This document shows positions 3,735 through 61,411 of a DNA stretch of 64,000 nt, piece by piece. Position 1 is the stretch's first letter. Each line of letters begins with the position of its first letter. Below the pieces are notes generated by a model that did not search any database, was not told the DNA's origin, and was given only the letters and a program-made list of their open reading frames with translations. This DNA is from an uncultured Pseudomonadota bacterium (lineage in GTDB: Bacteria; UBA10199; JADFYH01), in the NCBI GenBank assembly GCA_964384365.1, contig CAYLKF010000001.1:212079-276078 (forward strand), given 5' to 3'. A program made the translations under genes and the position numbers.

Positions 3735-3823
3735 TACCTCCTCATATCAGGCCCCACCGTTACAAATTCGCCCAAGCTTTCTAAACCTTCTCGAAGATGC
3801 GCGTTTCGCACATGCTCGAAGGT
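3735..3823. repeat. Left direct repeat: orphan copy of the last ~29 codons plus stop of the ABM-family gene at 11537..11818
   Basis: Base-by-base alignment of 3735..3823 with 11538..11626 gives 86/89 identical (mismatches at 3740, 3770, 3796). The minus-strand reading encodes ...FEHVRNAHLREGLESLGEFVTVGPDMRR-stop, but stops lie immediately upstream, so it is a gene fragment. Confidence 0.85.
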
Positions 3824-3860
3824 GGGCTGAGCACTGGGAATGGCATTTATAAAACCAGAT

Positions 3861-8053: not shown

Positions 8054-8054
8054 G

Positions 8055-11438: not shown

Positions 11439-11536
11439 GCTCCCTCTTTATTAAAAGAAAAATCACTCATTTTTGGAATGAGGAATTTCTACTAAAGCTC
11501 CAAGCTTTGAAAAGAAAGATCTATTTTCTCTGATCA

Positions 11537-11818
11537 CTACCTTCTCATATCAGGCCCCACCGTTACAAATTCACCCAAGCTTTCTAAACCTTCTCGAATA
11601 TGCGCGTTTCGCACATGCTCGAAGGTAACTTGGGCGCCCCACTCTTCGATAAAATTAAACTGATAAGTTTCGCTTGGATTTTGTTGAAATTCAAAACCCA
11701 AACATCCCGCACTTTTTAAAGCCGCAGCAATGGTGATACTCAAAAAATTCTTCATCGCTTCTTCTTGACCCGGCAAGGCTTTATAAAGTGAAATCATCCT
11801 CACAGTTTTACGGCGCAT
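11537..11818 (-). CDS. Antibiotic-biosynthesis-monooxygenase (ABM) family protein
   Basis: About 93 aa with an ABM-like pattern (ISLYKALPGQEEA...GCLGFEF...FIEEWGAQVTFEHVRNAH). The track start is a TTG at 11830; first ATG at 11818 has GGAG 6 nt upstream. Its 3' end is the right direct repeat. Confidence 0.6.
   Translation of the reverse strand: MRRKTVRMISLYKALPGQEEAMKNFLSITIAAALKSAGCLGFEFQQNPSETYQFNFIEEWGAQVTFEHVRNAHIREGLESLGEFVTVGPDMRR
11538..11626. repeat. Right direct repeat (the intact 3' end of the ABM gene)
   Basis: 86/89 identity to 3735..3823. Confidence 0.85.
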
Positions 11819-11850
11819 TTTTTTCTCCAATTTACAAAATTAATTTTGAT

Positions 11851-11882
11851 AAAAAAAGGCCCTACAGAATTTCTGTAGGGCC
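11851..11882 (-). terminator. Intrinsic terminator 3 nt downstream of tRNA-Leu
   Basis: 10-bp perfect stem GGCCCTACAG / CTGTAGGGCC with 5-nt loop; the plus-strand A-run 11851..11857 is the U-tract on the minus strand. Confidence 0.7.
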
Positions 11883-11884
11883 AG

Positions 11885-11970
11885 TGCCCGAGGCCGGAAT
11901 CGAACCGGCACGACCGTTTCCAGTCACAGGATTTTAAGTCCTGTGTGTCTACCAATTCCACCACTCGGGC
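11885..11970 (-). tRNA. tRNA-Leu (anticodon UAA), long variable arm
   Basis: Cloverleaf folded by hand: acceptor GCCCGAG/CTCGGGC, anticodon stem CAGGA/TCCTG with loop CTTAAAA, T-stem GCCGG/CCGGC with loop TTCGATT, discriminator A. Confidence 0.85.
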
Positions 11971-12005
11971 TAGCAGATCATTCGTATTAAACGAATGATC
12001 TGCTA
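11971..12005. repeat. 15-bp perfect-stem hairpin abutting the 5' end of tRNA-Leu
   Basis: TAGCAGATCATTCGT - ATTAA - ACGAATGATCTGCTA. No U-tract, so not a canonical terminator. Confidence 0.7.
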
Positions 12006-12038
12006 GGATTTAGTAACTAGTAATTAGTTTTTAGGGGG

Positions 12039-12404
12039 TCAACTTTTATCTTCTAGATTTTTAATTAATCCGCTAAGCATTTTGGAAATTTCAACACATT
12101 CTTGTCGAAATATTTTATATTGCTCCGACGAAATGGATTGAAGATCCAGTCCAAGTTCTAAAAGGGGCACACACTCATAAGTTGATCCTCTTGCTATAGT
12201 GTAAAAATTTTTCTTTTCTTTTAAAGACTCTCTCCCCCCACCTTCTGCTATGTTTAAAGTAATACTCATCGAAGCCCTGCGAAGTTGATCACACCACGAA
12301 AAATTATTTTTTGAAAATGGGCTTATTACTTTTATTATTTGTTTAGAAAAAACAAGCGCCCTCTGATAAACATGTAACTTTTCAAATGAGAACTGTTCGT
12401 CCAT
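12039..12404 (-). CDS. Four-helix-bundle protein (23S rRNA intervening-sequence protein / Avd-like family)
   Basis: Family-typical pattern LHVYQRALVF...DQLRRASMSITLNIAEGGGRES...FYTIARGSTYEC. Confidence 0.8.
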   Translation of the reverse strand: MDEQFSFEKLHVYQRALVFSKQIIKVISPFSKNNFSWCDQLRRASMSITLNIAEGGGRESLKEKKNFYTIARGSTYECVPLLELGLDLQSISSEQYKIFRQECVEISKMLSGLIKNLEDKS

Positions 12405-12438
12405 ATCCCTATCTACTTAAAACTTAACCCTTAATACT

Positions 12439-12470
12439 AAAAAAACTTCCCCGTTAAGGGGAAGTTTTTT
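12439..12470. terminator. Bidirectional intrinsic terminator immediately downstream of tRNA-Cys
   Basis: 8-bp stem ACTTCCCC / GGGGAAGT, loop GTTAA, A-run on one side and T-run on the other. Confidence 0.7.
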
Positions 12471-12471
12471 A

Positions 12472-12543
<72 letters not shown>

Positions 12544-12662: not shown

Positions 12663-12687
12663 GTAAGGCTATTACCAAACTAATATG

Positions 12688-12824
12688 AACAATTCGGCAG
12701 TGTTTCTGAAAGAAGGCAAAGTGCTGAATTCTTTAGGACTCACTAATACAGATCTGCACGTAACAAATTAGTTTCCTTACAGCGCGTTTTACCTGCACTG
12801 AAGAAATACTGCCGAATTGTTTCA
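12688..12824 (+). repeat. Intergenic element with imperfect terminal inverted repeats; shares blocks with 36265..36370
   Basis: Arms CAATTCGGCAGT (12689..12700) and ACTGCCGAATTG (12810..12821). Blocks AAAGTGCTGAATT and CAGCGCGTTTT recur 45-46 nt apart in both copies. Confidence 0.5.
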
Positions 12825-12894
12825 ATTCAAAATGAGCGCTTGACCGCCTTAAAACAGGCGCTTAGCCTTACTGCATCTCACTGGGAGGTGTCAA

Positions 12895-26631: not shown

Positions 26632-29229
26632 ATGGATTTTATTAGCTCCAAAAATTTAAGACCTCTCTTAAAAAGCATTATCGAATCGATTGTCGAATTG
26701 CATATTGGTCATCGTTTGATCGATAGTTTTTTGGTCTTAACCCCCAATGAAACAAGTGCCGAAGATTTAAGACAACTTTTTTTACAAAATCCTCAACTTG
26801 GAGGAGTGCTCACCGGCAAAAGTATCACTTCTCTGGGCAAATGGATTGCGCAATCAAGCCAAGAAATAGATTATAAAGCAAAAAAAGCACCTTCTTATAT
26901 TCAAGAAACTTTGCTCAAAAGTATTGTTCATCCCGATTTAACTGCAAATTACTCCGAGCTTTCTTACAAAAGCATTTTACTTTTGATTCAATCGTTCCGC
27001 GAGGAGTTCTTCAATGCTGCGTCTCTCAAAAATTTTCTCGAAGGATTTGACCCTGTTTTGGCGCAATATTGCCATGCGTGGTTTAAAAACTATGAACAAG
27101 CCATCGAACAGCACGCTCATCTTAAAGATTTTACCTGGCAGGCCGAGCTCTGTTTTCGGGAAATTTCTCAAAAAAAATTAACCGCTTTAAAGCCCATTCG
27201 TCGCATTTATTACTTAGGTTTTTTAGATTTCCCTCCCCTTCTCAAGAAGCTGACTCAAAGCCTTGAAAAATATTATCCAGAAATTTCTCAGATCGTGCTT
27301 TGTCAAATTCCTGAAACCTTAGACCCTCAAGATTATCTTTCTAAAACTTGGGAAGAAAATCTAAAAAATCTAAATTATTTTGAAGATAAAAGCGAAAATA
27401 CACTTTCGCTCAATGAATACACGAGCCCCTTCGAAGAAGCTTCGGCTCTCCTCTCAGAAATAAGTGAAAAAATTCAGGCGGGTGTTGATCCGAGCAGCAT
27501 TGCGCTCACGCTTCCTGCAAACGATTTCTGGCAGCACTATTACCAAGAACAACTCGAGGCCTTGGGGCTTTTTCCTCATTTTCCTTCGAATAAAAAACTC
27601 AGCCGATGTCTTATTCTTGAAGATTTTTTTGATCTTACTGCCCCACAAGCACTCGAAAAAGTAGAAACTTTACTCACTCAAAAAAGAAAAATTTTAAATT
27701 CCCTTCGCCAAACCTTGCCTGCCGAAGAATTAAAAGCGCTCGAAGGCTTTAAAGAAACTTTAGAGGAGATCCTTTTTTATCAAGAAGAATATCCGTGGCT
27801 AAAACCCCATTTTCCTTCTCTGCGTCAAATTGCTCAGCAAATTTTTCTACCTTTAAAGAGGGTTAGCCATCGCGGCATTCAAATTCGAAGCTTAGATCAA
27901 GTGGGGTTAAAACAATTTTCTTATAATTTTATTCCTCAACTCACGGAGAGCTCTTTTCCAAAAAACCCCGAACGTTTTTTGGGGCTCGCTCTCCCCAACC
28001 ATTCAAGAGAGCTCAGCTACCAACAAGCAATCTACCAAGATCTGCTGCACTCCGCTCAAGAAGTAAAAATTACTTATTCAAAAGTGGGGGTCCAGGCCAG
28101 AGAGCAAAGTCCTTCGTCGTTCATCATCGGAAATTTTAACCCAAGCTCTTTTCCAAATCTCTTTTGGGGAGCCCCTCTCCTCCCCGCTTCTTTTTCAGAA
28201 CGATTGGCCACTGAAAGGCTTCGCCAAGAAGATCTGAATTACCAACACGCTTACGGAGGCTGGATCACCAACAAGCAAACTTTAGAAAAATTGCAAAATT
28301 GGGCGGCCCAGGCTTTTTTCTCGGCCTCGCGCCTTGAAAAATATGCAAACTGCCCTTTTAGCTTCTTTGCCAGCACACTGCTCCGACTCGAAACAGAAGA
28401 AGAAAAAAATCTAGAAGGCGATGCGCGAGAGCAAGGAAAATGGGTTCACCAGTTGCTTGAAAACTTCTTCAAACAAAATCGTGATCTGCTTAAAAATGCT
28501 GGCTTCAATCGTGAACTTCGAAAAGAAGTCGAAGAAAAAATAAAAGAAGAAATTCACCGGGCCGCAGCACTTTTTTTAAAAAACAAACCTTGGGTGCACC
28601 CCAAGCTTTTTGAAGATTTTGCAGAGCGTGCCTTAAAAACCTGCCACGACCTCTTTCAACATTTTTGGAAACAATGGGAAGAAAAACGCCCCGCTCTTTT
28701 TATTCCAGAATTTTTTGAATATTCTTTCGGAAAAAATACAGCCCTTACCCTTCAACGCCAGGGCCTGCCTCCCCTTCGTTTAAAGGGTCAGATCGATCGC
28801 ATCGATGTTAGCGAAGATCGAAAAGAATTCATCACCTGGGATTATAAAACCGGCGGAGTGGAGGGGCTTACGCGAGAGATTAAAGAATTTAAAAAACTCC
28901 AACTCCCTCTCTATCTCAGGGCGGCTCAAGAGATTGAAAGTTTACAGGCAAGCACGGGGGTGGCTTCTCTTGCGCTGGGATTAAAAGAGATGAACGATAA
29001 TCAAGGCCTTGCCCAAAAAGAGCGTGCCTCCGTTTTTGGATTCAAAGGCCGTCCCGGATGCCTGCTCCCCGAAAAGGCTTGGGAGGATTTTTGGCCGGCG
29101 TTTGAAGAGAAAATTCTAGATTATTTTGAAAAAATTTATCGCGGCGATTTTCGCACTCAACCCGAACCTTGTTCGGAATATTGCGAATACCGCACGATTT
29201 GTCGATACCATGAACGCAAAAAATCTTAG
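26632..29229 (+). CDS. AddB-like PD-(D/E)XK nuclease subunit with C-terminal Cys cluster
   Basis: C-terminal nuclease motif DRIDVSEDRKEFITWDYKTG and Cys cluster CSEYCEYRTIC; no clear helicase motifs. Confidence 0.65.
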   Translation: MDFISSKNLRPLLKSIIESIVELHIGHRLIDSFLVLTPNETSAEDLRQLFLQNPQLGGVLTGKSITSLGKWIAQSSQEIDYKAKKAPSYIQETLLKSIVHPDLTANYSELSYKSILLLIQSFREEFFNAASLKNFLEGFDPVLAQYCHAWFKNYEQAIEQHAHLKDFTWQAELCFREISQKKLTALKPIRRIYYLGFLDFPPLLKKLTQSLEKYYPEISQIVLCQIPETLDPQDYLSKTWEENLKNLNYFEDKSENTLSLNEYTSPFEEASALLSEISEKIQAGVDPSSIALTLPANDFWQHYYQEQLEALGLFPHFPSNKKLSRCLILEDFFDLTAPQALEKVETLLTQKRKILNSLRQTLPAEELKALEGFKETLEEILFYQEEYPWLKPHFPSLRQIAQQIFLPLKRVSHRGIQIRSLDQVGLKQFSYNFIPQLTESSFPKNPERFLGLALPNHSRELSYQQAIYQDLLHSAQEVKITYSKVGVQAREQSPSSFIIGNFNPSSFPNLFWGAPLLPASFSERLATERLRQEDLNYQHAYGGWITNKQTLEKLQNWAAQAFFSASRLEKYANCPFSFFASTLLRLETEEEKNLEGDAREQGKWVHQLLENFFKQNRDLLKNAGFNRELRKEVEEKIKEEIHRAAALFLKNKPWVHPKLFEDFAERALKTCHDLFQHFWKQWEEKRPALFIPEFFEYSFGKNTALTLQRQGLPPLRLKGQIDRIDVSEDRKEFITWDYKTGGVEGLTREIKEFKKLQLPLYLRAAQEIESLQASTGVASLALGLKEMNDNQGLAQKERASVFGFKGRPGCLLPEKAWEDFWPAFEEKILDYFEKIYRGDFRTQPEPCSEYCEYRTICRYHERKKS

Positions 29230-29231
29230 GT

Positions 29232-29354
29232 GGCACCTCTAAAAACCACCCATCTGCCTTGTTGCCTGTTCGCTTACAATCCTCACGTACATTTAAAGTA
29301 CGCTCCGGTTGCAAGCTCACAGACGCCTAGCATCTGGACATTTTTAGAGGTACC
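29232..29354 (+). repeat. Intergenic block-conserved element, copy 2, with terminal inverted repeats, between the AddB-like and AddA-like genes
   Basis: Arms GGCACCTCTAAAAA and TTTTTAGAGGTACC (13/14 complementary); interior blocks shared with 12576..12652. Confidence 0.55.
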
Positions 29355-29368
29355 AAAAGTAAATAAAG

Positions 29369-32300: not shown

Positions 32301-32380
32301 AGGAAGAGCTTAAGAAACATGAGCTTTATTTAAAAAACTTAATGAATGAAATTAATCAATTCACTCTGACTTCCTCATGA
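29369..32380 (+). CDS. AddA/RecB-like UvrD-family helicase with C-terminal nuclease domain
   Basis: Walker A SAGCGKTTV, motif II IDEFQDTS, FYVATTRS, C-terminal IDCLYLHEKTWKVLDYKTH. Confidence 0.8.
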   Translation: MKLNFNQIQASESIDQHVCILASAGCGKTTVLVAHYLELLRKKNLRPSQIVVTTFSEKSAADIKQKILHLFRESEDLAHLLPEFLQAPISTLHGLAGRILRDSSFLLGLDPHFRVLDENQAASLQNEALKEVLQEQLHQSSPFLSLLIQTYPWRGLEREFYDLLQAWPEWKERFSQDFEKGSDETETKLKEAFAQVFLKILEKYEAKKKEKELLDFNDLEEKAIELLQKNIWVAKHYQKQWKAYLIDEFQDTSHRQDLLLSLLLPQNSEGKLSLQTHLAIVGDPKQSIYGFRGAKAHIFEKYQALIENSGGMTVELNENYRSPSTLLDFINALFTPIFSNYSSLIGNRELPQSLEILKSNEIIEEMKSDERRKQEAQSLSLHLQQILKEGVKSKEIFVLVRSSRSMAPYLKAFRNAGLPVFVKSGESLLTRQEIQDLLHALRVFLYPNQALSWIGLLRSPAFHLSDEQLLEYSLDHGLKPDWTQIHPLAQKLLQQDKNQSPSQFIEWWLNETALISLYSAEPSLQPQAQNLLQFYNFCFEWEQTHPAKLEEFLKEMEVLIEENIPFNSLSDQLGGNQAITFMTIHQSKGLDLPVVVLPDLKVNSSQAETRSLICAWEKKWGLKVPDSKPGLKKNLKSSNAFQENLKNLQAAQAEEENRIFYVATTRSTQKLILGFLPSENQKLGGKPPSLILSDPSTRSARSGSSFSILSRPQGTEFQESKDEKKESKQARDFLQTVGKNFSAVRWISPLQEISEPNENKILNKIQTLSAFKHKQILHFGVSALETFQRSPQEYRERYIDQIPAESLSGANRFRPSSSLSGLKKGQILHEALYLYFKEKTSSPAEILTSCLAKHAIDSQNLPELLEIFSRTLKHSNFSPILNAQEAYFEIDFRLLLDFYEIQGAIDCLYLHEKTWKVLDYKTHALEENRSKKELPAKPFEFQLKTYCLAASKMLGQTTERAEVYFIIPNKTFSFNFKEEELKKHELYLKNLMNEINQFTLTSS

Positions 32381-33795
32381 CTACAGGGGCACGGGGGATG
32401 AGGTTCGCTGCATCCCCCGATACTATGGACGCACAAACACGGCAAATTTTGGAATGGTCTGGAGAACCCGAAAAAGCCTTTTTCGATTTCCAAATCTTTT
32501 GTCAAAGGTACCAAGAAAAAACCGGCCAAGAATTTGATTTAGAACCCGTCAATGCCAAACGTCTGCTTTCAATCTTCGGAAATTCCTTTTTCTTAACCCG
32601 TTTTCTCTTAAAACACCCCGAAGAAGCCGATGGAGTTGTGAGCTCTCCCTGCTTTGAAACCGATAAATCGATTCAAGAATTCACTGAAGAACTCAATCTC
32701 TTCATTCCAAACATTTTCGAACTTCCACTCTCAGAGTTCGGTAAAAAACTTCGCTTCTACAAATATCGCGAATATTTACGCTTAACAGCTAAAGATCTTT
32801 CACAGGTTGCAGGGCTCTCTACCGTTTTAAATGAGCTCTCTTACCTGGCCACCGCCCTCATCCAAAAAACCTATGAATATTTTTATGCCCGTTTAAGCCA
32901 GGAATTAGGAGAACCCGAAACCAATAGTTTTGGCATTATTGCTCAAGGAAAACTAGGGGGCATGGAACTCAATTACTCCTCGGATGTTGATCTTCAATAT
33001 GTTTACCAAAGCGACCATGGCATTTTAAAAAAGTCTTCGCTCTCTCCTCACGAGTTTTTTGTGAAACTGGCTGAAAAAATTTCTCATTTTTTAAGCGAGA
33101 AAACCCCCGAAGGCTTTCTCTACCGCGTCGATTTAAATTTAAGACCCGAAGGCAAAAGTGGAACTCTCGCCAACTCATTATCTGCAATTGAATTGTATTA
33201 CGAAAGCTTTGGGGCTGAGTGGGAAAGACAAGCCCTAATTCGCGTTTTGCCGGTGGGTGGAAATCCTGAACTAGGAAAAACTTTTTTGAAGGTTATAGAA
33301 CCCTTTGTGTGGCGAAAAAGCATGGATCTGGGTGTGATTGAGAAAATGAAAGAGATGAAACAAAAAATTCGCCACTCGATTGCCGATTCCTTGACCAAGG
33401 GCTTTCATGTAAAACTGGGCGAAGGGGGAATTCGCGAAATTGAATTTTTTGTGCAAACCCTACAACTCTTATATGGCGGACGACATCCTGAGCTCAGAGA
33501 ACCTTCTACCCTGCCTGCCATTCAAGCTTTAAACAAATTTCAATTTATTCCGTCGCTTCAGGCCTCTCAACTCAAAGAGGCTTATCTTTTTTTACGTTCC
33601 TTGGAGCATCGTTTACAAATGGTTGAAGAAGCTCAAACCCATCGTATTCCCGAAGATTCAAAATCCCAACAAGCTTTGGCCAGGCGTATGGGATATTTCG
33701 AAGAAGATCCTGAAAAAGCCCGCGAGCATTTGCAAGATGATCTCACTCATTACACCGCTTTTGTAAAAGCAACTTTTCAGGATTTATTCCGATAA
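32377..33795 (+). CDS. glnE: Glutamine synthetase adenylyltransferase GlnE, N-terminal half as a separate ORF
   Basis: Nucleotidyltransferase motif GKLGGMELNYSSDVDLQYVY; start overlaps the addA-like stop (ATGA). Confidence 0.75.
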   Translation: MTTGARGMRFAASPDTMDAQTRQILEWSGEPEKAFFDFQIFCQRYQEKTGQEFDLEPVNAKRLLSIFGNSFFLTRFLLKHPEEADGVVSSPCFETDKSIQEFTEELNLFIPNIFELPLSEFGKKLRFYKYREYLRLTAKDLSQVAGLSTVLNELSYLATALIQKTYEYFYARLSQELGEPETNSFGIIAQGKLGGMELNYSSDVDLQYVYQSDHGILKKSSLSPHEFFVKLAEKISHFLSEKTPEGFLYRVDLNLRPEGKSGTLANSLSAIELYYESFGAEWERQALIRVLPVGGNPELGKTFLKVIEPFVWRKSMDLGVIEKMKEMKQKIRHSIADSLTKGFHVKLGEGGIREIEFFVQTLQLLYGGRHPELREPSTLPAIQALNKFQFIPSLQASQLKEAYLFLRSLEHRLQMVEEAQTHRIPEDSKSQQALARRMGYFEEDPEKAREHLQDDLTHYTAFVKATFQDLFR

Positions 33796-33846
33796 AGACC
33801 TCCTCCTCTTAAGATTAAGAGGGGGTATTAATGGATGTATTAAAAC

Positions 33847-34989
33847 ATGCTCAACAAACAAAACCTTGAAAAAGAAATTACCGAAGAAATTGAATCGTTG
33901 CCCGATCTCGAGGCCAAACTTGATATTATTCGCGTCTTTAAAAACAACCACCTCAAGGCACTTCAACAAACTGATCATAATGATTTAAACCAGCTTCCCG
34001 AAATTTTTAAAGACTTAAGCCTCATCGCCGATACCTTGGTGGAAGCCACTTTAAAACTTGCTGAAAAAGAGATTCAGAAAAACTATGGGATTCCTTCTTA
34101 TACCGATAATCTTGGAAACATCAGCGAATCCGAATTTGCGATTGTCGCTCTAGGTAAATGGGGTGGCAAAGAAATTCATTACGGCTCTGATCTTGATTTA
34201 ATCTTTCTCTATACTCGCGATGGCGAGACTCGTGGACGCAAGAAAATCACCAATAAAGAATATTACATTCTACTTGCCCAAAAACTGATCTCTTTTTTAA
34301 CGGCCTACACCTTTCACGGCTATGCCTATAAAATTGATACCCAACTTCGCCCTTCGGGCAATCAAGGCGCCTTGGTTTCTTCGCTCAATGCTTATTTCGA
34401 TTATCAACGGAACAAGGCCCAATTTTGGGAAAAACAGGCCCTACTCAAAGCCCGCTTTGTGGCCGGTTCTCCAAGTTTCGGCTCTTCTTTAAAAGGCCTT
34501 TTCCAACAACTCATTTTCTCAAAAGATTTTCCGCCCGATTTAAATACGAAAATTCACCACATGCGCATGCGTATGGAAAAAGAGAATGGCCGTGAAACGG
34601 CGAGGCGCCTTCATTATAAATTGGGATTTGGGGGTTTAACCGACATTGAATTTCTCACCCAATATCTTCAACTCAAAACCGGAAAAGTCTTTGAAAATTT
34701 TTTAACCGGGAACACGCTCGAGGCACTTCAAAAAATGGGTGAAAAGGGTCTTCTCAAAAAGACCGATTACACGCTTTTACGCGAGGCTTATCTTTTTTAC
34801 CGACTTCTAGAAACGCGAATGGAAGTCAACTTCGATCTTCGTGAGGGCTATATTGATCCAGAAAGTCATTTATTAGAAAATTTAGCCGAACTTATGGGGG
34901 AGACTTCCCAGGCATCTTTGCTTGAACATTTTCAAAAAACCCGAGATGATGTGCGTAGAATTTATTTAGAAATCTTAAAACTCGAATAA
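33847..34989 (+). CDS. glnE: Glutamine synthetase adenylyltransferase GlnE, C-terminal half as a separate ORF
   Basis: Second nucleotidyltransferase motif GKWGGKEIHYGSDLDLIFLY; separated from the first half by 51 nt containing a stop. Confidence 0.75.
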   Translation: MLNKQNLEKEITEEIESLPDLEAKLDIIRVFKNNHLKALQQTDHNDLNQLPEIFKDLSLIADTLVEATLKLAEKEIQKNYGIPSYTDNLGNISESEFAIVALGKWGGKEIHYGSDLDLIFLYTRDGETRGRKKITNKEYYILLAQKLISFLTAYTFHGYAYKIDTQLRPSGNQGALVSSLNAYFDYQRNKAQFWEKQALLKARFVAGSPSFGSSLKGLFQQLIFSKDFPPDLNTKIHHMRMRMEKENGRETARRLHYKLGFGGLTDIEFLTQYLQLKTGKVFENFLTGNTLEALQKMGEKGLLKKTDYTLLREAYLFYRLLETRMEVNFDLREGYIDPESHLLENLAELMGETSQASLLEHFQKTRDDVRRIYLEILKLE

Positions 34990-36225: not shown

Positions 36226-36264
36226 ACTAACTATAGAGCGGGTCAGCGTTTTTGAAGTGAGCGG

Positions 36265-36370
36265 AAAAGTGCTGAATTATCGATTAAAAAAAATAGAAGA
36301 ACTTTAAAAAATCTTAAATGCTTCCTCGCAGCGCGTTTTTACGCGAACTGAGAAAATGCTGAGCCGTGGC
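36265..36370. repeat. Intergenic element homologous to 12718..12824
   Basis: AAAGTGCTGAATT at 36266 and CCTCGCAGCGCGTTTTT at 36324, same spacing as the copy upstream of hpt. Confidence 0.5.
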
Positions 36371-36399
36371 TAAAAAAATGGATTTTAAAAAGAGCTCAA

Positions 36400-39858: not shown

Positions 39859-39880
39859 CTTTTATAACTCCAATTTTCAA

Positions 39881-40026
39881 TAGACTTCTTTCGTAACCGT
39901 CACGAGCAATTGACCTGCAAGGCGCGGTGGGACCCGTTTTCCGTAGCGTACAGTGACGTACGTGAGGAAAATGGGGGAACCGCAACGCAGCAGGGCATTT
40001 GCGCAGTAGGTTACGAAAGAAGTCTA
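39881..40026 (-). repeat. Long inverted-repeat element filling the purH-purD intergenic region (18-bp perfect arms, 110-nt interior)
   Basis: TAGACTTCTTTCGTAACC (39881..39898) and GGTTACGAAAGAAGTCTA (40009..40026). The right arm contains the purH stop codon. The interior, read on the minus strand, contains CCTCACGTAC..GTACGCT.CGG related to the 12556 and 29232 elements. Confidence 0.6.
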
Positions 40027-41604
40027 ATGCCTAAAATGCCGCATTCCGGTGAATACCATCGCCAAATTATGCTCATTCGCGGCCTGAATCACTTCTTCAT
40101 CGCGCACCGAACCACCCGGTTGAATTACGGCCGTAATTCCATATTGAGCGGCAGCATCGATTCCATCGCGAAAAGGAAAAAAGGCGTCGGACGCTAAAAC
40201 CGAGCCTTGCAAGGTTTCCTGGGCTTTTAAGCCACCCAACTTCACCGAATCAATTCGGCTCATCTGCCCTGCTCCAATTCCTACGGTATAACCCGGCTTC
40301 GCAAAAATGATGGCATTCGACTTCACATGTTTCGCCACTTTCCAGGCAAAGTTTAAGGCTTTCAGCTCACTGGCTGTAGGTTGGCGCTTACTCACAATCT
40401 TGCATTGGCTCACATCAATCTTGCCCAAATCACGGTTTTGGAGCAAAAGGCCACCCACGATTTTTCGGAGTTCTAGCCCTTCAGGCTTCCATTGCTTCGA
40501 AGAAGGCGTTTTCAAAATACGGAGATTCTTTTTTGTTTTCAGCAAATCGAGCGCTTGCGGCTCGTAATCGGGCGCTACAATCGCCTCAAAAAAAGTCTGA
40601 TTAAATTCTTGGGCAAAATCTAAATCGACTCGGGCATTCACGGCAACAATTCCACCAAACGCCGAAGTCGGATCACAAGCCTTCGCGCGATCGAAGGCCT
40701 CTTTGAGCGAATCACCCAAAGCCACTCCACAAGGATTATTGTGTTTGATGATTACACAGGCGATTTCTTCAAATTCTTTTACCGTATCTAAAGCCGAATC
40801 GAGATCTAAAATATTATTATAAGAAAGCTCTTTGCCATGCAAAACACTCGCGTTGGCGATAGAGGGTTCGTGAATGCCTTCAAAACGGTAAAAGGCCGCT
40901 TTTTGGTGAGGATTTTCTCCGTAGCGCAATAGAGAAATACCTTGAGCCTGCAAATTCAACACTTGAGGAAAGGCTTGCGCCTGAGGCACTTCTTCTGCCG
41001 CACACTCGGCAATACTGGTGAGATAATTACTAATCGCTCCATCGTAGGCAGCCGTATGCGAAAAAGCCTTTTGAGCAAAATAAAACCGCGTGGAACGATC
41101 GATCTTTCCCTCGTTCTTTTTCAAAATCTCAATCACCCTTGAGTAATCTTGAGGATCCACTACTACGGTGACCGATTCGAAGTTTTTCGCCGCCGAACGA
41201 ATCATCGAAGGCCCACCAATATCGATATTCTCAATGGCGGTTCCTAAATGAGTGCCGGACTTTGCAACCGTTTCTTCAAAGGGATAAAGATTCACCACCA
41301 CCAAATCAATGGGGCGAATTTGTTGGGCTTCCATTTCTTTGAGGTGTTTTGGATCATCGCGTTTTCCGAGCAAGCCCCCATGAATCTTTGGATGCAGCGT
41401 TTTAACCCTCCCATCTAAAATTTCGGGAGAACCCGTAAAATCAGAGACTTTAATAACCGGAATATTTTCTTTTTTCAAAATCTCGGCCGTATTTCCGGTA
41501 GAAAGAATTTCAACGTTGAGCGAGTGAAGAGTCTTGGCCAATTCTACCAAGCCTTCTTTTTTTGAAACACTCACCAAAGCACGACGAATCAAAACTTCTT
41601 GCAT
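40024..41604 (-). CDS. purH: Bifunctional AICAR transformylase / IMP cyclohydrolase
   Basis: MGS-like N-terminal domain (ALVSVSKKEGL) and AICARFT domain. Confidence 0.92.
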   Translation of the reverse strand: MQEVLIRRALVSVSKKEGLVELAKTLHSLNVEILSTGNTAEILKKENIPVIKVSDFTGSPEILDGRVKTLHPKIHGGLLGKRDDPKHLKEMEAQQIRPIDLVVVNLYPFEETVAKSGTHLGTAIENIDIGGPSMIRSAAKNFESVTVVVDPQDYSRVIEILKKNEGKIDRSTRFYFAQKAFSHTAAYDGAISNYLTSIAECAAEEVPQAQAFPQVLNLQAQGISLLRYGENPHQKAAFYRFEGIHEPSIANASVLHGKELSYNNILDLDSALDTVKEFEEIACVIIKHNNPCGVALGDSLKEAFDRAKACDPTSAFGGIVAVNARVDLDFAQEFNQTFFEAIVAPDYEPQALDLLKTKKNLRILKTPSSKQWKPEGLELRKIVGGLLLQNRDLGKIDVSQCKIVSKRQPTASELKALNFAWKVAKHVKSNAIIFAKPGYTVGIGAGQMSRIDSVKLGGLKAQETLQGSVLASDAFFPFRDGIDAAAQYGITAVIQPGGSVRDEEVIQAANEHNLAMVFTGMRHFRH

Positions 41605-41618
41605 AAAAATTTCCTTTT

Positions 41619-42749
41619 CTAATTCGATGTCGACTGAGCTCGCACTGCTAAACGAGGAACCCGACTAGAAATCCCACAAAAAATTTCGTAAGAAATTGTT
41701 TTAATTTTACTGGCCAACTCTTCGGCAAACAAAACTTCTTCGCCTTGTTTACCAATCACCACCACTTCATCTCCTAAAGCCACTTCGGGGATATCGGTTA
41801 CATCAATCAAAGTTAAATCCATGCAAACTCGCCCCACCACCGGAACCCGCCGCCCTCGCACTAAAACTTCGCCACAATTTGAAAACGAACGCGAATAACC
41901 ATCGGCATAACCTAAAGCCATAATGGCAATCTTACTCGGACGAGACGTGTAATAGCTTGCCCCATAAGATAAAGCCGCCCCTGAAGGAAATTCTTTTAAA
42001 GAAACGATCTCCGTTTTCCAACTCAAGACTGGTTCTAATCGAATTTGAGACTCAAAACGTGGATTCGGATAAGCCCCGTACAACGCGATACCCGGCCGCA
42101 CCAGGCTTGTTTGATCGACCCGTTTTTCAATTAAGGCCGCACTGTTTGCAATATGAAAAAAAGGGATCTGCATTTCGCTTAATTTTTCGCGCACCTCTTC
42201 AAATCGAGAGTACTGCTCTTCGGTGGGGTGCGGGTTTTCTTCATCCGCACAGGCGAGATGGGTCATTACTCCTTCTAATTTCAAGGCGGGAGAATCTTGA
42301 ATCAATTTCAAATAACGCGAAAGCTCTTTTGGAAAAATTCCCAAGCGCCCCATGCCGGTATCGATTTTGAGATGAAAAGGTAAAATCGAGGGCGAACCCG
42401 AAAGTTCTTGGGCCAAGCGGCGCAGAGTTTCTTCTTCAAATAGAACGGGGGTAATTTGATATTCGAGTAAATCTTTGGCACTGGCTTTAAAGGCTCCGCC
42501 AAAACACAAGATCGAACGCGAAATACCTGCTTTTCGAAGCTCCAACCCTTCTTCAATCGTCGCCACCCCAAAAGTAGTTGCGCCCTCAGCCTCTAAAACA
42601 CGCGCCACAGTAACTGCACCATGCCCGTAAGCATTGGCCTTCACCACGGCCAAAATGCCTTGATCCCCTGCACAGGCTTTTAAGGCTTGATAATTATGGC
42701 GAAGAGCGGCCAAATCGATTTCACAAAAACTAGGGCGGAAAAAGGGCAC
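41619..42749 (-). CDS. alr: Alanine racemase
   Basis: PLP-binding motif AVVKANAYGHG. Start codon is GTG. Confidence 0.9.
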   Translation of the reverse strand: MPFFRPSFCEIDLAALRHNYQALKACAGDQGILAVVKANAYGHGAVTVARVLEAEGATTFGVATIEEGLELRKAGISRSILCFGGAFKASAKDLLEYQITPVLFEEETLRRLAQELSGSPSILPFHLKIDTGMGRLGIFPKELSRYLKLIQDSPALKLEGVMTHLACADEENPHPTEEQYSRFEEVREKLSEMQIPFFHIANSAALIEKRVDQTSLVRPGIALYGAYPNPRFESQIRLEPVLSWKTEIVSLKEFPSGAALSYGASYYTSRPSKIAIMALGYADGYSRSFSNCGEVLVRGRRVPVVGRVCMDLTLIDVTDIPEVALGDEVVVIGKQGEEVLFAEELASKIKTISYEIFCGISSRVPRLAVRAQSTSN

Positions 42750-42764
42750 AGTTGCCTCGTCTAA

Positions 42765-42925
42765 ATTCCAGAATGTTTTCTTTAATTTTTTTGGATGTCT
42801 GAGCGTCCAAAAACAATCGCTCTTGAACTTTCACTCGCGGTTACTCAAAAACACGAAAAACGCACCGTGAAAGAGCGATTCAAAATCGCGAGTTTCCAAA
42901 AAAATTAAAGAAAACATTCTGGAAT
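42765..42925. repeat. 161-bp palindromic element with 30-bp perfect inverted-repeat arms in the divergent alr / MBL-gene promoter region
   Basis: ATTCCAGAATGTTTTCTTTAATTTTTTTGG (42765..42794) is the exact reverse complement of 42896..42925. The 101-bp interior has nested inverted repeats. Confidence 0.8.
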
Positions 42926-42993
42926 GGATATTATATTTTCTATTTACGCTTTTTGATTGGTGCGTTATTTCTCCTATTCTAAGGAAACGGTGA

Positions 42994-43752
42994 ATGTCAA
43001 AACTTAAAATAACATCGATTGGGCACGCGAGCCATCTCATCGAGATGGACGGCGAATTTCTGATTACTGATCCAAATTTCTCGCGAAAAATGTGGATTGC
43101 GAAACGTGAAAAAGAGCCCGGAATTGCCCCCGAAGATTTACCCCAGCTCGCCGCGATTGTTGTTACTCATGCACACTACGATCACCTCGATCTTTTTAGT
43201 TATAAATACTTCTCCATTCATATTCCAATCGTAGTGCCCGAAGGCTTGGGGAGTTTTATAAAAAAGCATCTACGAAACCCCGTAATTGAAATTCCAAAAG
43301 AAGGTTCTGTGTTGGTGGGAGGAATCAAAATCCATCGCGTGCCCGTAAAACATTTTGGTTTTCGCCTTTTCGGGCTCACCTGGCGTGAAACCACAGGTTA
43401 TCTTTTTGAAAAAAACGGCAAAAAAGTTTATTTTCCGGGCGATACCGCTTACGGCGATGGTGAGCATTTTCGAAAAGCGGCTGCAAAACACGCGATTGAT
43501 GCCGCCCTACTCCCAATTGGTGCTTATGCCCCGCGCTGGTTTATGAAAAGTCGGCATATGAATCCACCCGATGCCCTTCAAGCGTTTAGCGATTTAAAAG
43601 CAAAAGTGATGATTCCTTATCACTGGGGAGTATTTCAAATTTCTGCCGAACCTGTCGAGGCCCCGCGGGAATGGCTCGAGCAAATTCTCAAAGAAAAACC
43701 GGATTCTCGCGTAAAAATCTTGCGCCCCGGAGAACATTGGAGCTCCGAATGA
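42994..43752 (+). CDS. MBL-fold metallo-hydrolase
   Basis: Metal-binding motif VTHAHYDHLD. Confidence 0.8.
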   Translation: MSKLKITSIGHASHLIEMDGEFLITDPNFSRKMWIAKREKEPGIAPEDLPQLAAIVVTHAHYDHLDLFSYKYFSIHIPIVVPEGLGSFIKKHLRNPVIEIPKEGSVLVGGIKIHRVPVKHFGFRLFGLTWRETTGYLFEKNGKKVYFPGDTAYGDGEHFRKAAAKHAIDAALLPIGAYAPRWFMKSRHMNPPDALQAFSDLKAKVMIPYHWGVFQISAEPVEAPREWLEQILKEKPDSRVKILRPGEHWSSE

Positions 43753-44333
43753 ATTCCAAAATCTATGCTTTGATAATTCCCCTCCTCTTTTTGCCTTTTT
43801 TTCTTCACGCGGGTGAAACCCCGATTAGTGAAGGTGAGATGGTGCGCGTCATCAATTCGAATTTTGGAGATAGCCCGCTTTATCAATCGAAAGATATTCC
43901 CGATAAAGAGCTTCATGCTTTCGATTTTAACGACGACGGAAAATCGGAATGGGTGGTGATTCCCCAAAATGCCTGCGGCATTACCAATACCTGCCATATT
44001 TTTCTTCTTCAACAGACCCAACATTCGAAAGATAACTGGAAACTCCTTCTCTTGGCGAACGGAAAGATTACTTCACTCACGCCCTGGGGAATTTTAATCC
44101 TGCCCCGCAAAACCAAAGGCTATGCCGATCTGGCAACCGTCTTCGATCAAGGCCACGATTCTAAAGGCAACCGGATTCTCGATCGACGCATTTATGTTTG
44201 GAACGGAAAGCAATACGAAGAGTGGAACGGCATCTACCCTCCTCCCTCCGAAAAATCCGAAGAAATTCAAAAAAGCCTAGAACAGCTCAACCAGCTTCGA
44301 TACTCTCCAAAACTCTCTCGGAAGCCTAATTGA
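43749..44333 (+). CDS. Secreted hypothetical protein
   Basis: ATG at 43749 overlaps the upstream stop (ATGA); signal peptide MNSKIYALIIPLLFLPFFLHAG. Confidence 0.6.
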   Translation: MNSKIYALIIPLLFLPFFLHAGETPISEGEMVRVINSNFGDSPLYQSKDIPDKELHAFDFNDDGKSEWVVIPQNACGITNTCHIFLLQQTQHSKDNWKLLLLANGKITSLTPWGILILPRKTKGYADLATVFDQGHDSKGNRILDRRIYVWNGKQYEEWNGIYPPPSEKSEEIQKSLEQLNQLRYSPKLSRKPN

Positions 44334-44366
44334 CATCTCAAAAAGCTCGGTGTTACACCTTCGCAA

Positions 44367-44567
44367 ATGGAAATTCTTCTGAACGGTGAACCTTTTCAAC
44401 TCAGCTCACCCGAAACCTTAAGCGAGCTTTTAAACAAGCACTCGATTAACCTTTCGTTTTGTGCAGTCGCTGTGAACCGAAAAGTTGTTCCCCGCTCCGA
44501 ACTTGCTAAAACTCAAGTGCAAGAAGGCGATCAAATCGAGATCGTTCAAGCCGTGGGGGGGGGATGA
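44367..44567 (+). CDS. thiS: Thiamine biosynthesis sulfur-carrier protein ThiS
   Basis: 66 aa ending in GG. Confidence 0.85.
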
Positions 44568-44632
44568 AGTTTGACAACTCTCGCATTCCACTCGGAGCCA
44601 AAGGAAATGTAGGTTTTTTAGAAAGGAAGCTC

Positions 44633-47075
<2,443 letters not shown>

Positions 47076-47076
<1 letters not shown>

Positions 47077-50207: not shown

Positions 50208-51110
50208 ATGAAAAAAACCTTAATGTTTCTGGGGCTCTTCCTCGGTATTTTACTCAGCCCTACCCTCGAATCGAAAAACCGGAGCGCCGAAAGCATTCCT
50301 CAAAAGACGGTAAAATTCTTCAGTTTTGGCGATTGGGGTTCGGGAACTCAAGATCAGAAAAACGTCGCGGAGCTCAGCAAAAAAATATGCAAAGAATTTG
50401 GCTGCGATTTTGGCTTACTTTTGGGAGATAATTTTTATCCGAGCGGCGTCAAAAACACTCAAGATCCTTATTGGAAAGATCGATTTCAAAAAATCTATGA
50501 AGGCTTGAATCTCCCGTTTTTCGCAGCGCTTGGAAACCACGACTGGCGAGGAAACGCCACGGCTCAAGTCGATTTTTCTAAGATCGACAAAAACTGGAAG
50601 ATGCCTGGATTTTTTTATAGTTTTACAGCGCCCTTGAACACGCCGAATCCCTTGCTAGAAATCTTTGTCTTAAATTCCAACCAGTTTGACACGGATTCCG
50701 AGCAATGGCTGAAAGTGGCTTTAGAAAAATCAAAGGCTCCGTGGAAAATGCTCGCCTTTCATCATCCGATTCTCAATACCGGTGATAAGCACCCTCCCGA
50801 TCAAATGAAAATGTGGCCCCGCTTGAAACCCATTGTTTGTGGAAAAATTGATCTCATTCTTTCGGGGCACGAGCACATCTTCGCCCATCTCCGCCCTCAA
50901 CCGAACGATTGTCATTATGATCAAATTATTATCGGCACAGGCGGCAAAGAGCTTTATGGCATTACAACAACCTCTGCAAACACGCTTAAACTCAATGCCG
51001 ATGCCCACTTTGGATTAGGCTGGTTTGAAGTAAGCACGAAAAAAATGGACCTGAAATTTTTCAAAGTGCCGGGAGAAGAGGCGTATTCCTACACTTGGGA
51101 GAAAAAATGA
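50208..51110 (+). CDS. Secreted calcineurin-like metallophosphoesterase
   Basis: Motifs GDWGSG, GDNFYPSG, LGNHD, GHEH; signal peptide. Confidence 0.8.
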   Translation: MKKTLMFLGLFLGILLSPTLESKNRSAESIPQKTVKFFSFGDWGSGTQDQKNVAELSKKICKEFGCDFGLLLGDNFYPSGVKNTQDPYWKDRFQKIYEGLNLPFFAALGNHDWRGNATAQVDFSKIDKNWKMPGFFYSFTAPLNTPNPLLEIFVLNSNQFDTDSEQWLKVALEKSKAPWKMLAFHHPILNTGDKHPPDQMKMWPRLKPIVCGKIDLILSGHEHIFAHLRPQPNDCHYDQIIIGTGGKELYGITTTSANTLKLNADAHFGLGWFEVSTKKMDLKFFKVPGEEAYSYTWEKK

Positions 51111-55547: not shown

Positions 55548-56417
55548 TTAGTAAGCCAAGGGTGCTGCATAAAGTTTTACATTTGCATAAGTTGCCAATT
55601 CAATTTCTTCATCTGAATCAGGGTCTTTCAATTTTAAGGTAATCTTAACCATTCGCGGAAGATGATTGCTAAACTCGAGTTGGGAGGAATCCCAACTTTT
55701 CGACCAATCTTTTTTAGTCGCATCGTAATATTCAAAACGCAGATCGCTCACACTCCCCACCATCTCTTCGATTTTACCCCCTTCTTCGGGGCGATCATCT
55801 AACAGCCTCTGTTCACGACGCTTCAAAATATTGGTCTCACTCTTCTCAGGATCTTTTTCTAAAAAATATCCTATTTCCCCAAAATTGTTTTCTTGGGATT
55901 CAGCAAAATAGCGCTCAATAGAGAAACTGGCAAAGTTCACATGATCTTGTTCTCCTTTAAACACTGTTTTTTTACGGCCATCGTTCCCCAGAAAATCAGG
56001 GCTCACAATCAGAAAAGACATTTCTAAATCTCGCGCCATTCGCCCCAATGCAAGAGAGGCCTGATGCATCAGTTCATCTCGATCTTCGGTACTCTGATTG
56101 GTTTTAACCGTCTCGGTCATCGAAGCATAAAGCAAAACGGTCATGAGCGCCAAAATGCTGATCGCGATCATCACCTCAATCAGCGTGAAACCCTGAGAAA
56201 ATAAATTTTGACTTGAAGATAACGGATGCCTTCTTCTTGAAGTAAAGGAAAAACAAGCCGAAGCCTCTCTATTTTGACCCAAGCAAATCGAGGAATTCGT
56301 ATAAAAAAGAGGGTTCCTTGCGGCGGATTTTTTCCTGAACGGAAAGAAGGAGGCATCTGTAAAGTAGCCTCTACTTAAGATTAGCGATGTGCGTTGTAAC
56401 GACGACTTTCTCTTCAT
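55548..56417 (-). CDS. gspJ: Type II secretion system minor pseudopilin J
   Basis: Prepilin motif GFTLIEVMIAISILAL. The track start overlaps gspI; the true start is probably a non-ATG codon further downstream. Confidence 0.7.
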   Translation of the reverse strand: MKRKSSLQRTSLILSRGYFTDASFFPFRKKSAARNPLFYTNSSICLGQNREASACFSFTSRRRHPLSSSQNLFSQGFTLIEVMIAISILALMTVLLYASMTETVKTNQSTEDRDELMHQASLALGRMARDLEMSFLIVSPDFLGNDGRKKTVFKGEQDHVNFASFSIERYFAESQENNFGEIGYFLEKDPEKSETNILKRREQRLLDDRPEEGGKIEEMVGSVSDLRFEYYDATKKDWSKSWDSSQLEFSNHLPRMVKITLKLKDPDSDEEIELATYANVKLYAAPLAY

Positions 56418-59530: not shown

Positions 59531-59701
59531 TCGAAATAATTGTCCTTAAATTTTCATTATTATAATTTCTTTTAGAACCGTTATGAGCGGGCTCAAGACA
59601 AGGCGGGCGAGGAGAAAAGCCGCAGCGTATATGAATATACGTGAGGATTTTTCGACGAACCCAACGCAGTCATTAGTCCGCGTAATAGGTTATAAAAGAA
59701 A

Positions 59702-61411
59702 TTATTCTCTCATCTGATCTTCTTGTGTAACTCGGAGCAACTCTTCAATGGTTGTTTCTCCCGCCAAAACTTTTCGCGCTCCATCTTCACGCAGAGTAAG
59801 CATTCCTTTTTCCATCGCACGTCGCTTAATCCGGCCGGCCTCGACCCCTTTCATAATCATGGAACGAAGTTCATCATCCATCACCAAAATTTCATGAATA
59901 CCGGTTCTACCGGCATAGCCCGTATCTAAGCAGGCAGGGCAACCTTTGGCCTTGAAAACAAATTTATCGACAACCTTCGCGGGATCTAAGCCTATCTGCG
60001 CCAGCTCCTCGGCACTAGGTTTATAACGAGCGCCACATTCTTTACAGACTGTTCGCAAAAGACGTTGCGCCATAATGGCGATCACCGATGAGGAAACCAA
60101 AAAAGGCTCCACACCCATATCGATCAAACGCGCAATCGAAGAGGCCGAGTCGTTGGTATGTAAGGTTGAAATAACCAAGTGTCCGGTGAGTGATGCCTGA
60201 ATTGCAATTTCGGCGGTTTCACGATCTCGAATTTCTCCGATCATCACTACGTCTGGATCTTGACGCAAAATCGATCGCAAACCGGTTGCAAAAGTAAGAT
60301 CGATCTTCGGGTTCACTTGAATCTGGTTAATACCCGGAATTTGATATTCAACAGGATCTTCAACCGTGATGATTTTCAAATCGGTGGAGTTAATCTGAGA
60401 AAGCATGGCATATAGAGTTGTCGTTTTACCAGATCCGGTAGGCCCTGTGACCAAGATAATTCCGTGACTTTTATGGATTAAACTTTCGACGGTCTTTAAA
60501 TTCTGCCCTTCAATTCCAATAACTCCCAGAGAAAGAACAACTTTACTCTTATCGAGGAGACGCATCACAACCGATTCTCCAAAACTCGTAGGCAAAGTCG
60601 AAACACGAATATCGATATCTTTTCCTGCAATTTTAATACGAATACGCCCGTCTTGAGGGAGTCGCTTCTCCGCAATATTGAGATTAGCCATAATTTTAAT
60701 ACGACTAATCACCGAATTTTGAACTTTTTTAGGCGGATGCATAATATCGTAGAGCACCCCATCGATTCGAAAACGCACGACCAAATCTCGCTCAAAGGGC
60801 TCAACGTGAATATCGGAGGCTTTCGACTTTACAGCGCGAGAGAGCAAACTATTTACAAGTTTAATGATAGGCGCTTCATCAGAAACATCTAACAAATCTT
60901 GCGGTTCTTGAAGTTCTTGAGCCAGGGTATCTAGATTTTCTTCCGAAAGATCTTCCATCACGGCCTGATCGGTTTCGGTGTTTCGATTATAAACTTCGTT
61001 AATGGTTTCTAAGATTTGAGAGGAGCTCGCAATAACGGGCTTGATCGAAAGATTGAGCAAAACATGTAAATCGTCTAGGGCATGAATATTAATCGGATCA
61101 GAGATGGCCACTTCGAGATCGTCCCCAACTTTGCGCAAAGGAAGAAGTTCATTTTTCTTCGCATAGTTAATGGGAATTTTCTTGATATAGTCGTAGGGGA
61201 TCTCATCTGTTTTCAGGCGACTTGAATAAGGAATACCCACCTGAATACTAATCGCCTTCAAAATATCTTCGGATTTTAAATAACGAAGCTGAACGAGAGC
61301 TTCTCCTAACTTTATATTCTTTTCCCGCTGAACCAGTAAGCCCTCTTCAAGCTGGGCTTCGGTGAGAGAAGTATTTTCGAGTAAAATATTTCCAAGGCTT
61401 CGATCATCCAT
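59702..61411 (-). CDS. gspE: Type II secretion system ATPase E
   Basis: Walker A GPTGSGKTTT and C-terminal Cys motif. Track start 61468 is a TTG; first ATG at 61411 has GAGGA about 10 nt upstream. Confidence 0.9.
   Translation of the reverse strand: MDDRSLGNILLENTSLTEAQLEEGLLVQREKNIKLGEALVQLRYLKSEDILKAISIQVGIPYSSRLKTDEIPYDYIKKIPINYAKKNELLPLRKVGDDLEVAISDPINIHALDDLHVLLNLSIKPVIASSSQILETINEVYNRNTETDQAVMEDLSEENLDTLAQELQEPQDLLDVSDEAPIIKLVNSLLSRAVKSKASDIHVEPFERDLVVRFRIDGVLYDIMHPPKKVQNSVISRIKIMANLNIAEKRLPQDGRIRIKIAGKDIDIRVSTLPTSFGESVVMRLLDKSKVVLSLGVIGIEGQNLKTVESLIHKSHGIILVTGPTGSGKTTTLYAMLSQINSTDLKIITVEDPVEYQIPGINQIQVNPKIDLTFATGLRSILRQDPDVVMIGEIRDRETAEIAIQASLTGHLVISTLHTNDSASSIARLIDMGVEPFLVSSSVIAIMAQRLLRTVCKECGARYKPSAEELAQIGLDPAKVVDKFVFKAKGCPACLDTGYAGRTGIHEILVMDDELRSMIMKGVEAGRIKRRAMEKGMLTLREDGARKVLAGETTIEELLRVTQEDQMRE

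Follow-up and report, generated by a model that had tools for sequence, protein, structure and literature searches.

A conserved 161-bp foldback element between alr and an MBL-thi operon in an uncultured bacterial lineage, possibly retained as the alr 5' leader

Correia elements (CREE) are not known outside Neisseria, and their TA target is duplicated. They are present in more than 100 copies per genome, some of which contain an IHF site; their ends can supply promoter elements, and most copies hold their location across strains (PMC2649163). One such element, which separates mtrCDE from its native promoter, is contained within the mRNA and is cut by RNase III, and the symmetry of its inverted repeats sets the potential for this cleavage (PMC2649163). 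REPINs are intergenic, vertically inherited and long-persistent, and their spacers vary between copies while the hairpin is kept (PMC3337134). The MITEs of bacteria have been reviewed (PMC2229807, PMC10969869). Among invertons, in which inverted repeats bracket an invertible segment, more than 75% of those known are shorter than 300 bases (PMC11602134).

The present work concerns an element, I1, found in the window, by which we mean the whole 64-kb stretch of DNA that was analysed. Like CREE/NEMIS, which are small (roughly 100-157 bp), intergenic and often located 5' of genes, I1 consists of terminal repeats around a core in the intergenic DNA next to gene starts. On its left lies alr (41619-42749, minus strand), which starts with a GTG codon (42749-42747) and whose product matches Pfam Ala_racemase_N from residue 11. 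The Shine-Dalgarno sequence of this gene, GAGG (42758-42755, minus strand), is located 6 nt past the left arm of the element and is identical in the sister lineage L016, a 418-kb contig of JGI 3300013121 that was found via a neighbouring 194-aa protein. On the right, an MBL-fold hydrolase gene (42994-43752, plus strand) heads the MBL-(194 aa)-thiS-thiG-thiC operon (42994-47076, plus strand), in which the 194-aa product is secreted or lipoprotein-like. The Pfam scan of the window ORFs thereby bore out the divergent alr/MBL-thi setting that an initial, sequence-only reading of this DNA had assigned to the repeat.

A repeat search of the window revealed that the left arm (ATTCCAGAATGTTTTCTTTAATTTTTTTGGA, 42765-42795) and the right arm (42895-42925), its reverse complement, are each 31 nt long, 100% complementary and separated by a core of 99 nt (42796-42894), giving a total of 161 bp; no strand is assigned to any of the three parts. 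The sequence-only reading had given 30-bp perfect repeats around 101 bp, of which the exact complementarity stands, while the arms are really 31 nt and the spacer 99 nt. With up to three mismatches allowed, the arm matches only its own two sites in the 64-kb window, and none of 100 shuffled sequences gave a match. For the base composition of the window, the chance expectation is about 1e-11 perfect 31-nt inverted repeats, at a spacing of up to 400 nt, per 64 kb. The inverted repeat of I1 is therefore confirmed as real and far beyond chance. When folded as a single strand, the 161 nt reach -63 to -70 kcal/mol as RNA and -46 kcal/mol as DNA, and the corresponding z-scores are -9.5 for the plus-strand RNA, -9.2 for the minus-strand RNA and -10.5 for the DNA.

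The core forms small helices of its own and is no simple palindrome. The nested inverted repeats that had been noticed within the element were seen again, at 42815-42824/42871-42880 (10 nt, 100%) and at 42833-42842/42884-42893 (10 nt, 90%). The former corresponds to core helix 1 (42815-42880), AATCGCTCTT(GAACTTTCAC)...(GTGAAAG)AGCGATT, which was obtained both from the repeat search and from the folds of the plus-strand RNA and the DNA. The latter corresponds to core helix 2 (42833-42893), ACTCGCGGTT / AATCGCGAGT, which was obtained from the repeat search and is present in the minimum-free-energy fold of the minus strand. As the two helices interleave, they represent alternative structures that cannot both fully form. 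The right half of the core also harbours a 15-bp palindrome, GCGATTcaaAATCGC (42875-42889), read from the sequence and invariant in L016, which we speculate might be a protein-binding site. The internal palindromes of the arm ATTCCAGAATGTTTTCTTTAATTTTTTTGGA are no longer than TCCA/TGGA. The only open reading frame in I1 is a 28-aa minus-strand frame without a Shine-Dalgarno sequence, which was rejected as a small peptide gene, all three of the L016 changes being non-synonymous. An intrinsic terminator in the core (minus strand, 42869-42852) was also considered and rejected; its stem has 5 bp and is disrupted by a C-to-T change in L016.

The divergent alr/MBL pair is conserved in an uncultured clade, the nearest named relatives of which are MAGs labelled 'Deltaproteobacteria bacterium'. 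The gap between the two genes measures 64 bp in L014, 73 bp in L012 and 110 bp in L003 (the MBL of which shares 82% amino-acid identity with that of the window), and none of these gaps contains a long inverted repeat; I1 is absent from L003/L004/L005, L012 and L014. In the window, the gap is 244 bp and contains I1. In L016, where the MBL is 96% identical to that of the window at the amino-acid level, the gap is 247 bp, and the same element occupies the same site with the same orientation of both element and core. This distribution indicates that I1 either was acquired once the L003 lineage had branched off or has disappeared from that lineage, and that it precedes the split between the window and L016. 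The L013 gap, of 260 bp, holds a hairpin element unrelated to I1, in which perfect arms of 21 nt enclose a 92-nt spacer; this points to an independent colonisation of the alr-MBL gap by another foldback element in that lineage. The arms of this L013 element (3762-3895) are themselves palindromic (CCCCTCTTgggttAAGAGGGG), and a hairpin of 18 bp occupies its centre.

Between the window and L016, I1 as a whole is 94.4% identical, its arms 96.8% and its core 92.9%, and the 68-nt flank on the MBL side is 95.6% identical. The corresponding values are 86.9% for alr, 86.3% for MBL, about 65% for the third codon positions of alr and MBL together, and 76-82% for the two less conserved intergenic regions. 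The difference is significant both with respect to the third codon positions (Fisher p=5e-16) and with respect to these two intergenic regions (p=3e-4). Along one branch, about 15 neutral hits would be expected over the 62 arm positions (Jukes-Cantor distance of 0.48 from the third positions), and the arms of the window have none. Perfect arms had been taken to imply either recent origin or selection. Given that I1 predates the split of the sister lineages, which differ at about 35% of their synonymous sites, the perfection of the arms reflects constraint and not youth; the low divergence thus supports selection, and a recent origin is contradicted by the presence of I1 before the L016 split. 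Each L016 arm carries one A-to-G change that yields a G.T (G.U) pair on the plus strand, and a C-to-T change at 42820, in core helix 1, also retains a G.U pair on that strand. On the alr (minus) strand, these three pair-preserving transitions, two in the arms and one in the core helix, correspond to C.A mismatches. Over the roughly 110 nt that run from the rightmost 40 nt of the core through the right arm into the neighbouring flank, a single change is found.

On the minus strand, a perfect TATAAT (42935-42930), identical in L016, is located 4 nt beyond the right arm. A consensus sigma-70 scan of 42600-43100 found no full -35/-10 pair at threshold, and we regard the TATAAT as a candidate lead to the alr promoter, a -10 only, with no recognisable -35. 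Read on the plus strand, the same AT block (42930-42935) offers TATTAT/TATATT, candidate -10 boxes for MBL. Since I1 lies 4 nt downstream of the TATAAT and 6 nt before the alr Shine-Dalgarno sequence, nearly all of it would be transcribed as the alr leader, and an alr start about 7 nt past the TATAAT would land 2-4 nt inside the right arm. In the window and in L016 alike, the predicted minus-strand leader retains the stem of roughly 30 bp, with two C.A mismatches in the latter, and this long stem does not sequester the alr Shine-Dalgarno sequence.

Our preferred reading, to which we give a probability of roughly one half, is that I1 is a MITE/REPIN-like foldback insertion that selection has kept in the role of alr 5' leader. 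The ancestor that the window and L016 lineages share would have acquired it as a small, non-autonomous insertion of this kind; at about the same time, at least two other hairpin families of 130-160 bp would have colonised intergenic DNA, and purifying selection would have held I1 in place since its insertion. A stem of about 30 bp in the alr leader could set the stability or processing of the mRNA, whether by protecting its 5' terminus or by serving as a substrate of RNase III, as for the Correia elements that lie between a promoter and a gene, the nearest analogue to have been characterised by experiment. On the opposite side, the right arm together with the invariant right half of the core would adjoin the MBL-thiSGC promoter on its upstream side. 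Because the right side of I1 is the likely upstream region of the MBL-thi promoter, this arrangement may explain the sequence conservation of the right half. I1 has probably been exapted into both the alr leader and the MBL-thi upstream region.

The mobile origin in this reading is inferred from several properties. Among the options offered by the sequence-only reading, a MITE-like element is the closest in kind: it accords with the terminal repeats, the size, the lack of a credible ORF, the absence from distant relatives and the colonisation of this stretch by other foldbacks, but it is weakened by the lack of a second copy and of a clear target-site duplication. Further copies of the arm, a check set beforehand, were found neither in the window, nor in about 213 kb of related loci, nor in the collection scans. 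Searches with blastn-short and with a covariance model, R1, based on two orthologues, matched I1 alone in the roughly 213 kb of the window and related loci. An exact 23-mer scan of the GTDB representative genomes yielded one match, a single arm in unrelated DNA of a Sphingobacteriales MAG; an exact 20-mer scan gave six single-arm chance matches in unrelated, mostly coding DNA of the JGI metagenomes and none in IMG/VR. A blastn search of I1 against plasmid and phage collections returned no match. No clear target-site duplication was found in the window or in L016: the flanks in the window (...TCTAA / GGATA...) contain no direct repeat, the GGA on each side of I1 in L016 is a weak match of 3 bp, and the AT at each end of I1 is inseparable from the inverted repeat itself. 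No transposase or recombinase, including tyrosine and serine recombinases and Y1 transposases, was detected among the 49 window ORFs scanned against Pfam. The Rfam scan that had been recommended for I1 matched no family. At the gathering threshold, Rfam found only two tRNAs in the whole window and nothing at I1, and at E<=10 over 42700-43000 it gave only generic long-hairpin miRNA models scoring at most 27 bits, against the 85 or more needed.

The window contains six further intergenic hairpin elements of 130-160 bp, which belong to two families, B and C. Family B is found at 39875-40032, between purH and purD, at 59559-59708, between gspE and gspF (hairpin I7), and at 29228-29358 on the minus strand, and in L016 at 6124-6281 and 1896-2033. 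Its members fold into near-complete hairpins, roughly 130-160 nt long, whose apex carries a conserved motif, CCGnAGCGTAC...GTACGTGAGG. Comparison of the paralogues reveals compensatory changes at 18 of 54 pairs; the element between purD and purH is 97% identical to its orthologous copy in L016. One strand of the family B elements folds 10-25 kcal/mol better than the other, owing to G.U pairs, and this strand is antisense to the operon in all three intra-operon copies. Family C is found at 12684-12825, at 36230-36372 in the GshA-DksA intergenic region, and at 56215-56365. Its members share the blocks AAGTGCTGAATT, CAGCGCGTTTT(T)AC and ACTGA..AAAT.CTG, and their outer arms covary. A further inverted repeat, I2 (27209-27378; 83%), falls within an AddB-like gene and was put down to chance.

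The sequence available for the L003 lineage spans four of the six family B and C sites. The gaps there are 16 bp between purD and purH, 6 bp between gspE and gspF and 46 bp between pseudopilin genes. Neither family had a match in the L003-lineage region, the GshA-DksA gap included, and family B is absent from the sequence examined of that lineage. Given that the GshA-DksA gap holds a family B element in L016 and a family C element in the window, the two families turn over. I1 has its size, intergenic habit and phylogenetic distribution in common with families B and C, and its sequence is unrelated to theirs: the pairwise scores of I1 against hairpins I4, I5 and I7 lie inside the shuffled nulls, and the covariance models of families B and C gave no match to I1. 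A wider reading would unite all three as persistent, vertically inherited elements of about 150 bp, at a density of about one per 9 kb, that are under selection and resemble REPINs without the REP and RAYT hallmarks, with I1 acting as a shared control of alr, an essential cell-wall gene, and of a thiamine operon that has no riboswitch; we consider this unlikely. The dense, covarying hairpin families suggest a REPIN-like system in a little-known lineage and are a more interesting lead than I1 itself.

Of the alternatives to a selected leader element, the one that survives best regards I1 as a passenger, that is, a neutral foldback insertion whose similarity between the lineages results from recent homologous recombination over a short tract. 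The low-divergence tract does extend about 60 nt into both alr and MBL, where 17 of 20 and 18 of 20 third positions are identical over the first 20 codons. The 5.6% divergence of I1 is not significantly different from the 12.5% at these adjacent third positions (p=0.16). In addition, purH, beside hairpin I4, is unusually similar between the lineages (81% at third positions), an indication that mosaic divergence occurs. However, the early-codon effect is general for most operon-leading genes in the 20-kb comparison of the window (34321-54636) with L016: most genes that follow an intergenic region reach 80-100% identity at the third positions of their first 20 codons, against 60-70% over the remainder. 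This rise is missing in thiG, thiS, the 194-aa gene and GshA, which have no substantial gap before them. The divergent promoter region between DksA and DciA is also 95% identical, and separate recombination tracts, each centred on intergenic DNA, would be unlikely. Moreover, the substitutions in I1 are non-random, in that all seven core changes fall within 42811-42854, in the left half, and none in the right 40 nt (Fisher p=0.04), and paired positions have changed only to G.U. Since the early-codon effect is general and the DksA-DciA region is equally conserved, regulatory constraint is favoured over recombination. The comparison with L016 thus leads us to favour purifying selection as the force that has kept I1, and we regard a short recombination import as unlikely.

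A different role for the transcribed element would be in plus-strand RNA, where I1 might serve as a 5' leader of MBL-thiSGC that replaces a TPP riboswitch, or as a small RNA gene directed towards MBL. A leader hairpin for these genes had been among the first proposals for this repeat, together with the remark that no TPP riboswitch was found there. The latter was upheld by an Rfam search of the window and five related thi loci, which detected no TPP riboswitch (RF00059) at the MBL-thi loci of the window, L003, L012, L013, L014 and L016, and this absence is what a replacement would call for. The two mutually exclusive core helices are switch-like, and the three paired-position changes in L016 (A-to-G, A-to-G and C-to-T) all keep G.U pairs on the plus strand only, although three transitions of the same polarity have a probability of about 1/8. 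Neither the scan nor our reading of the sequence, however, revealed a promoter-like site to the left of I1 on the plus strand, and the best -10-like boxes, which are conserved, lie downstream of I1, between the element and the MBL start. The same interval contains a motif, TTTACGC...CCTATTCTAAGGAAA, located 5' of MBL. The MBL-thiS-thiG-thiC operon is also present in L003 and L013, where I1 is lacking, and I1 has no Rfam match. These findings speak against the leader hairpin proposed for MBL-thiSGC, and a plus-strand RNA function is, in our estimation, distinctly unlikely. The motif 5' of MBL is common to the relatives, and its clade-wide form, TTTACGC ... CCTAT(T/C), could be a protein operator.

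I1 might also act as DNA, either by extruding a cruciform or by binding proteins (as an operator, or through sites for nucleoid proteins), and so co-regulate both promoters without being transcribed. The near-invariance of the right core half, right arm and flank (1 change in about 110 nt) would suit such a site, as would the position of the GCGATTcaaAATCGC palindrome, whose centre precedes the inferred MBL start by about 62 bp. The A-tracts and GCGATTcaaAATCGC can serve as examples of nucleoid-protein sites, and the single-stranded DNA fold is strong (-46 kcal/mol, z = -10.5). Long spacers strongly disfavour cruciform extrusion, however, and the spacer here has 99 nt. Single-strand folding accounts better for the constraint on arm complementarity. 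No cognate regulator came to light, and in the relatives a mere 64-110 bp suffice for the regulation of this gene pair. A purely DNA-level function is accordingly rated as very unlikely.

It is highly improbable that I1 is an inverton, in which the arms would be invertase sites and a flip of the 99-bp core would switch between alr and MBL-thi expression. The perfect repeats do bracket a short intergenic segment of the usual size beside gene starts in a divergent promoter region, as in fimS-type invertons, but no invertase or other recombinase gene was found among the 49 ORFs scanned in the 64 kb. The window, L016 and L002 all carry the core in one and the same orientation, the core contains no promoter-like hexamer pair and almost no TA-containing hexamers, and the other hairpins in the window, being near-complete palindromes (family B) or intra-operon, are unsuited to switches. 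L002, an independent assembly of the same strain, does start at window position 42891, 4 nt inside the boundary of the right arm, which might be expected of an inversion. This break was rejected as a sign of inversion: L021, a further contig from this strain, terminates at the apex of I7 (59559-59708), an unrelated hairpin, and the breaks at hairpins are therefore assembly artefacts. Breaks of this kind in short-read assemblies could pass for the boundaries of inversions or mobile elements. Finally, an origin of I1 by inverted duplication of an ancestral leader or promoter was rejected, as comparison of the L003 gap with the arms and core gave no significant alignment (p = 0.04-0.47) and a best match of 12 nt.

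Several other features of the window were observed in passing. The region 3861-12543 contains a Type I restriction-modification operon, hsdR, hsdS and hsdM, in which hsdR and hsdS are separated by the insertion of two genes, one DUF4917/SIR2-like and one with an Abi_C domain. Two tRNA genes (11885-11970 and 12472-12543) adjoin this operon and bracket a gene for a '23S rRNA intervening sequence protein' (12039-12404); the region resembles a small defence island located at a tRNA site. The adjacent ORFs at 32377-33795 and 33847-34989 each encode GlnE plus GlnD_UR_UTase domains, as if glnE (adenylyltransferase/removase) had been split into two genes at 32377-34989. A gene for a 300-aa secreted calcineurin-like phosphoesterase (50208-51110) separates rlmN from the neighbouring gene in the window and in L016, and the gap there is 43 bp in the L003 lineage.

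If I1 is indeed a foldback insertion retained as the alr leader, it would represent a clean natural example of such an insertion captured ahead of an essential gene, with the promoter on one side and the ribosome-binding site on the other. Its 31-bp stem would then have been kept without one unpaired base while synonymous sites diverged by about one third. It would also provide a case for studying how double-stranded RNA stems in 5' leaders are tolerated or used, whether in RNase III processing or in protection of the 5' end. Taken alone, I1 is an ordinary kind of feature, of which it is a well-preserved example.

The comparison with the described systems places I1 close to several of them. 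I1 resembles CREE in architecture: the size class is the same, and so is the inferred order of promoter, element and gene. It differs from CREE in that no other copy was found, its ends show no TA duplication and its host is an uncultured bacterium with relatives among the MAGs labelled 'Deltaproteobacteria bacterium'; furthermore, no IHF consensus or WATCAANNNNTTR-type site was seen on reading the I1 core. REPINs are REP doublets that form hairpins and are moved by RAYT transposases; their arms, the REPs, are short imperfect palindromes present in tens to hundreds of copies, and they flank a RAYT gene. Families B and C, with their covarying stems, fit the REPIN picture well. I1 differs from it, since its arms are not self-palindromic, its core is no simple hairpin, a single copy was seen and the window encodes no Y1 transposase. 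With MITEs, which derive from IS elements and are non-autonomous, I1 shares terminal repeats, a length well below 500 bp, the lack of a credible ORF, an intergenic location and presence or absence across related genomes, whereas neither a multi-copy state nor a clearly duplicated target site nor a parent IS whose ends match was found where it was searched for. Unlike a decaying MITE, I1 has orthologous copies that are far better conserved than neutral sites. I1 is therefore best filed beside the small intergenic MITE/REPIN-like hairpins, to which we liken it in kind and in likely action rather than in membership.
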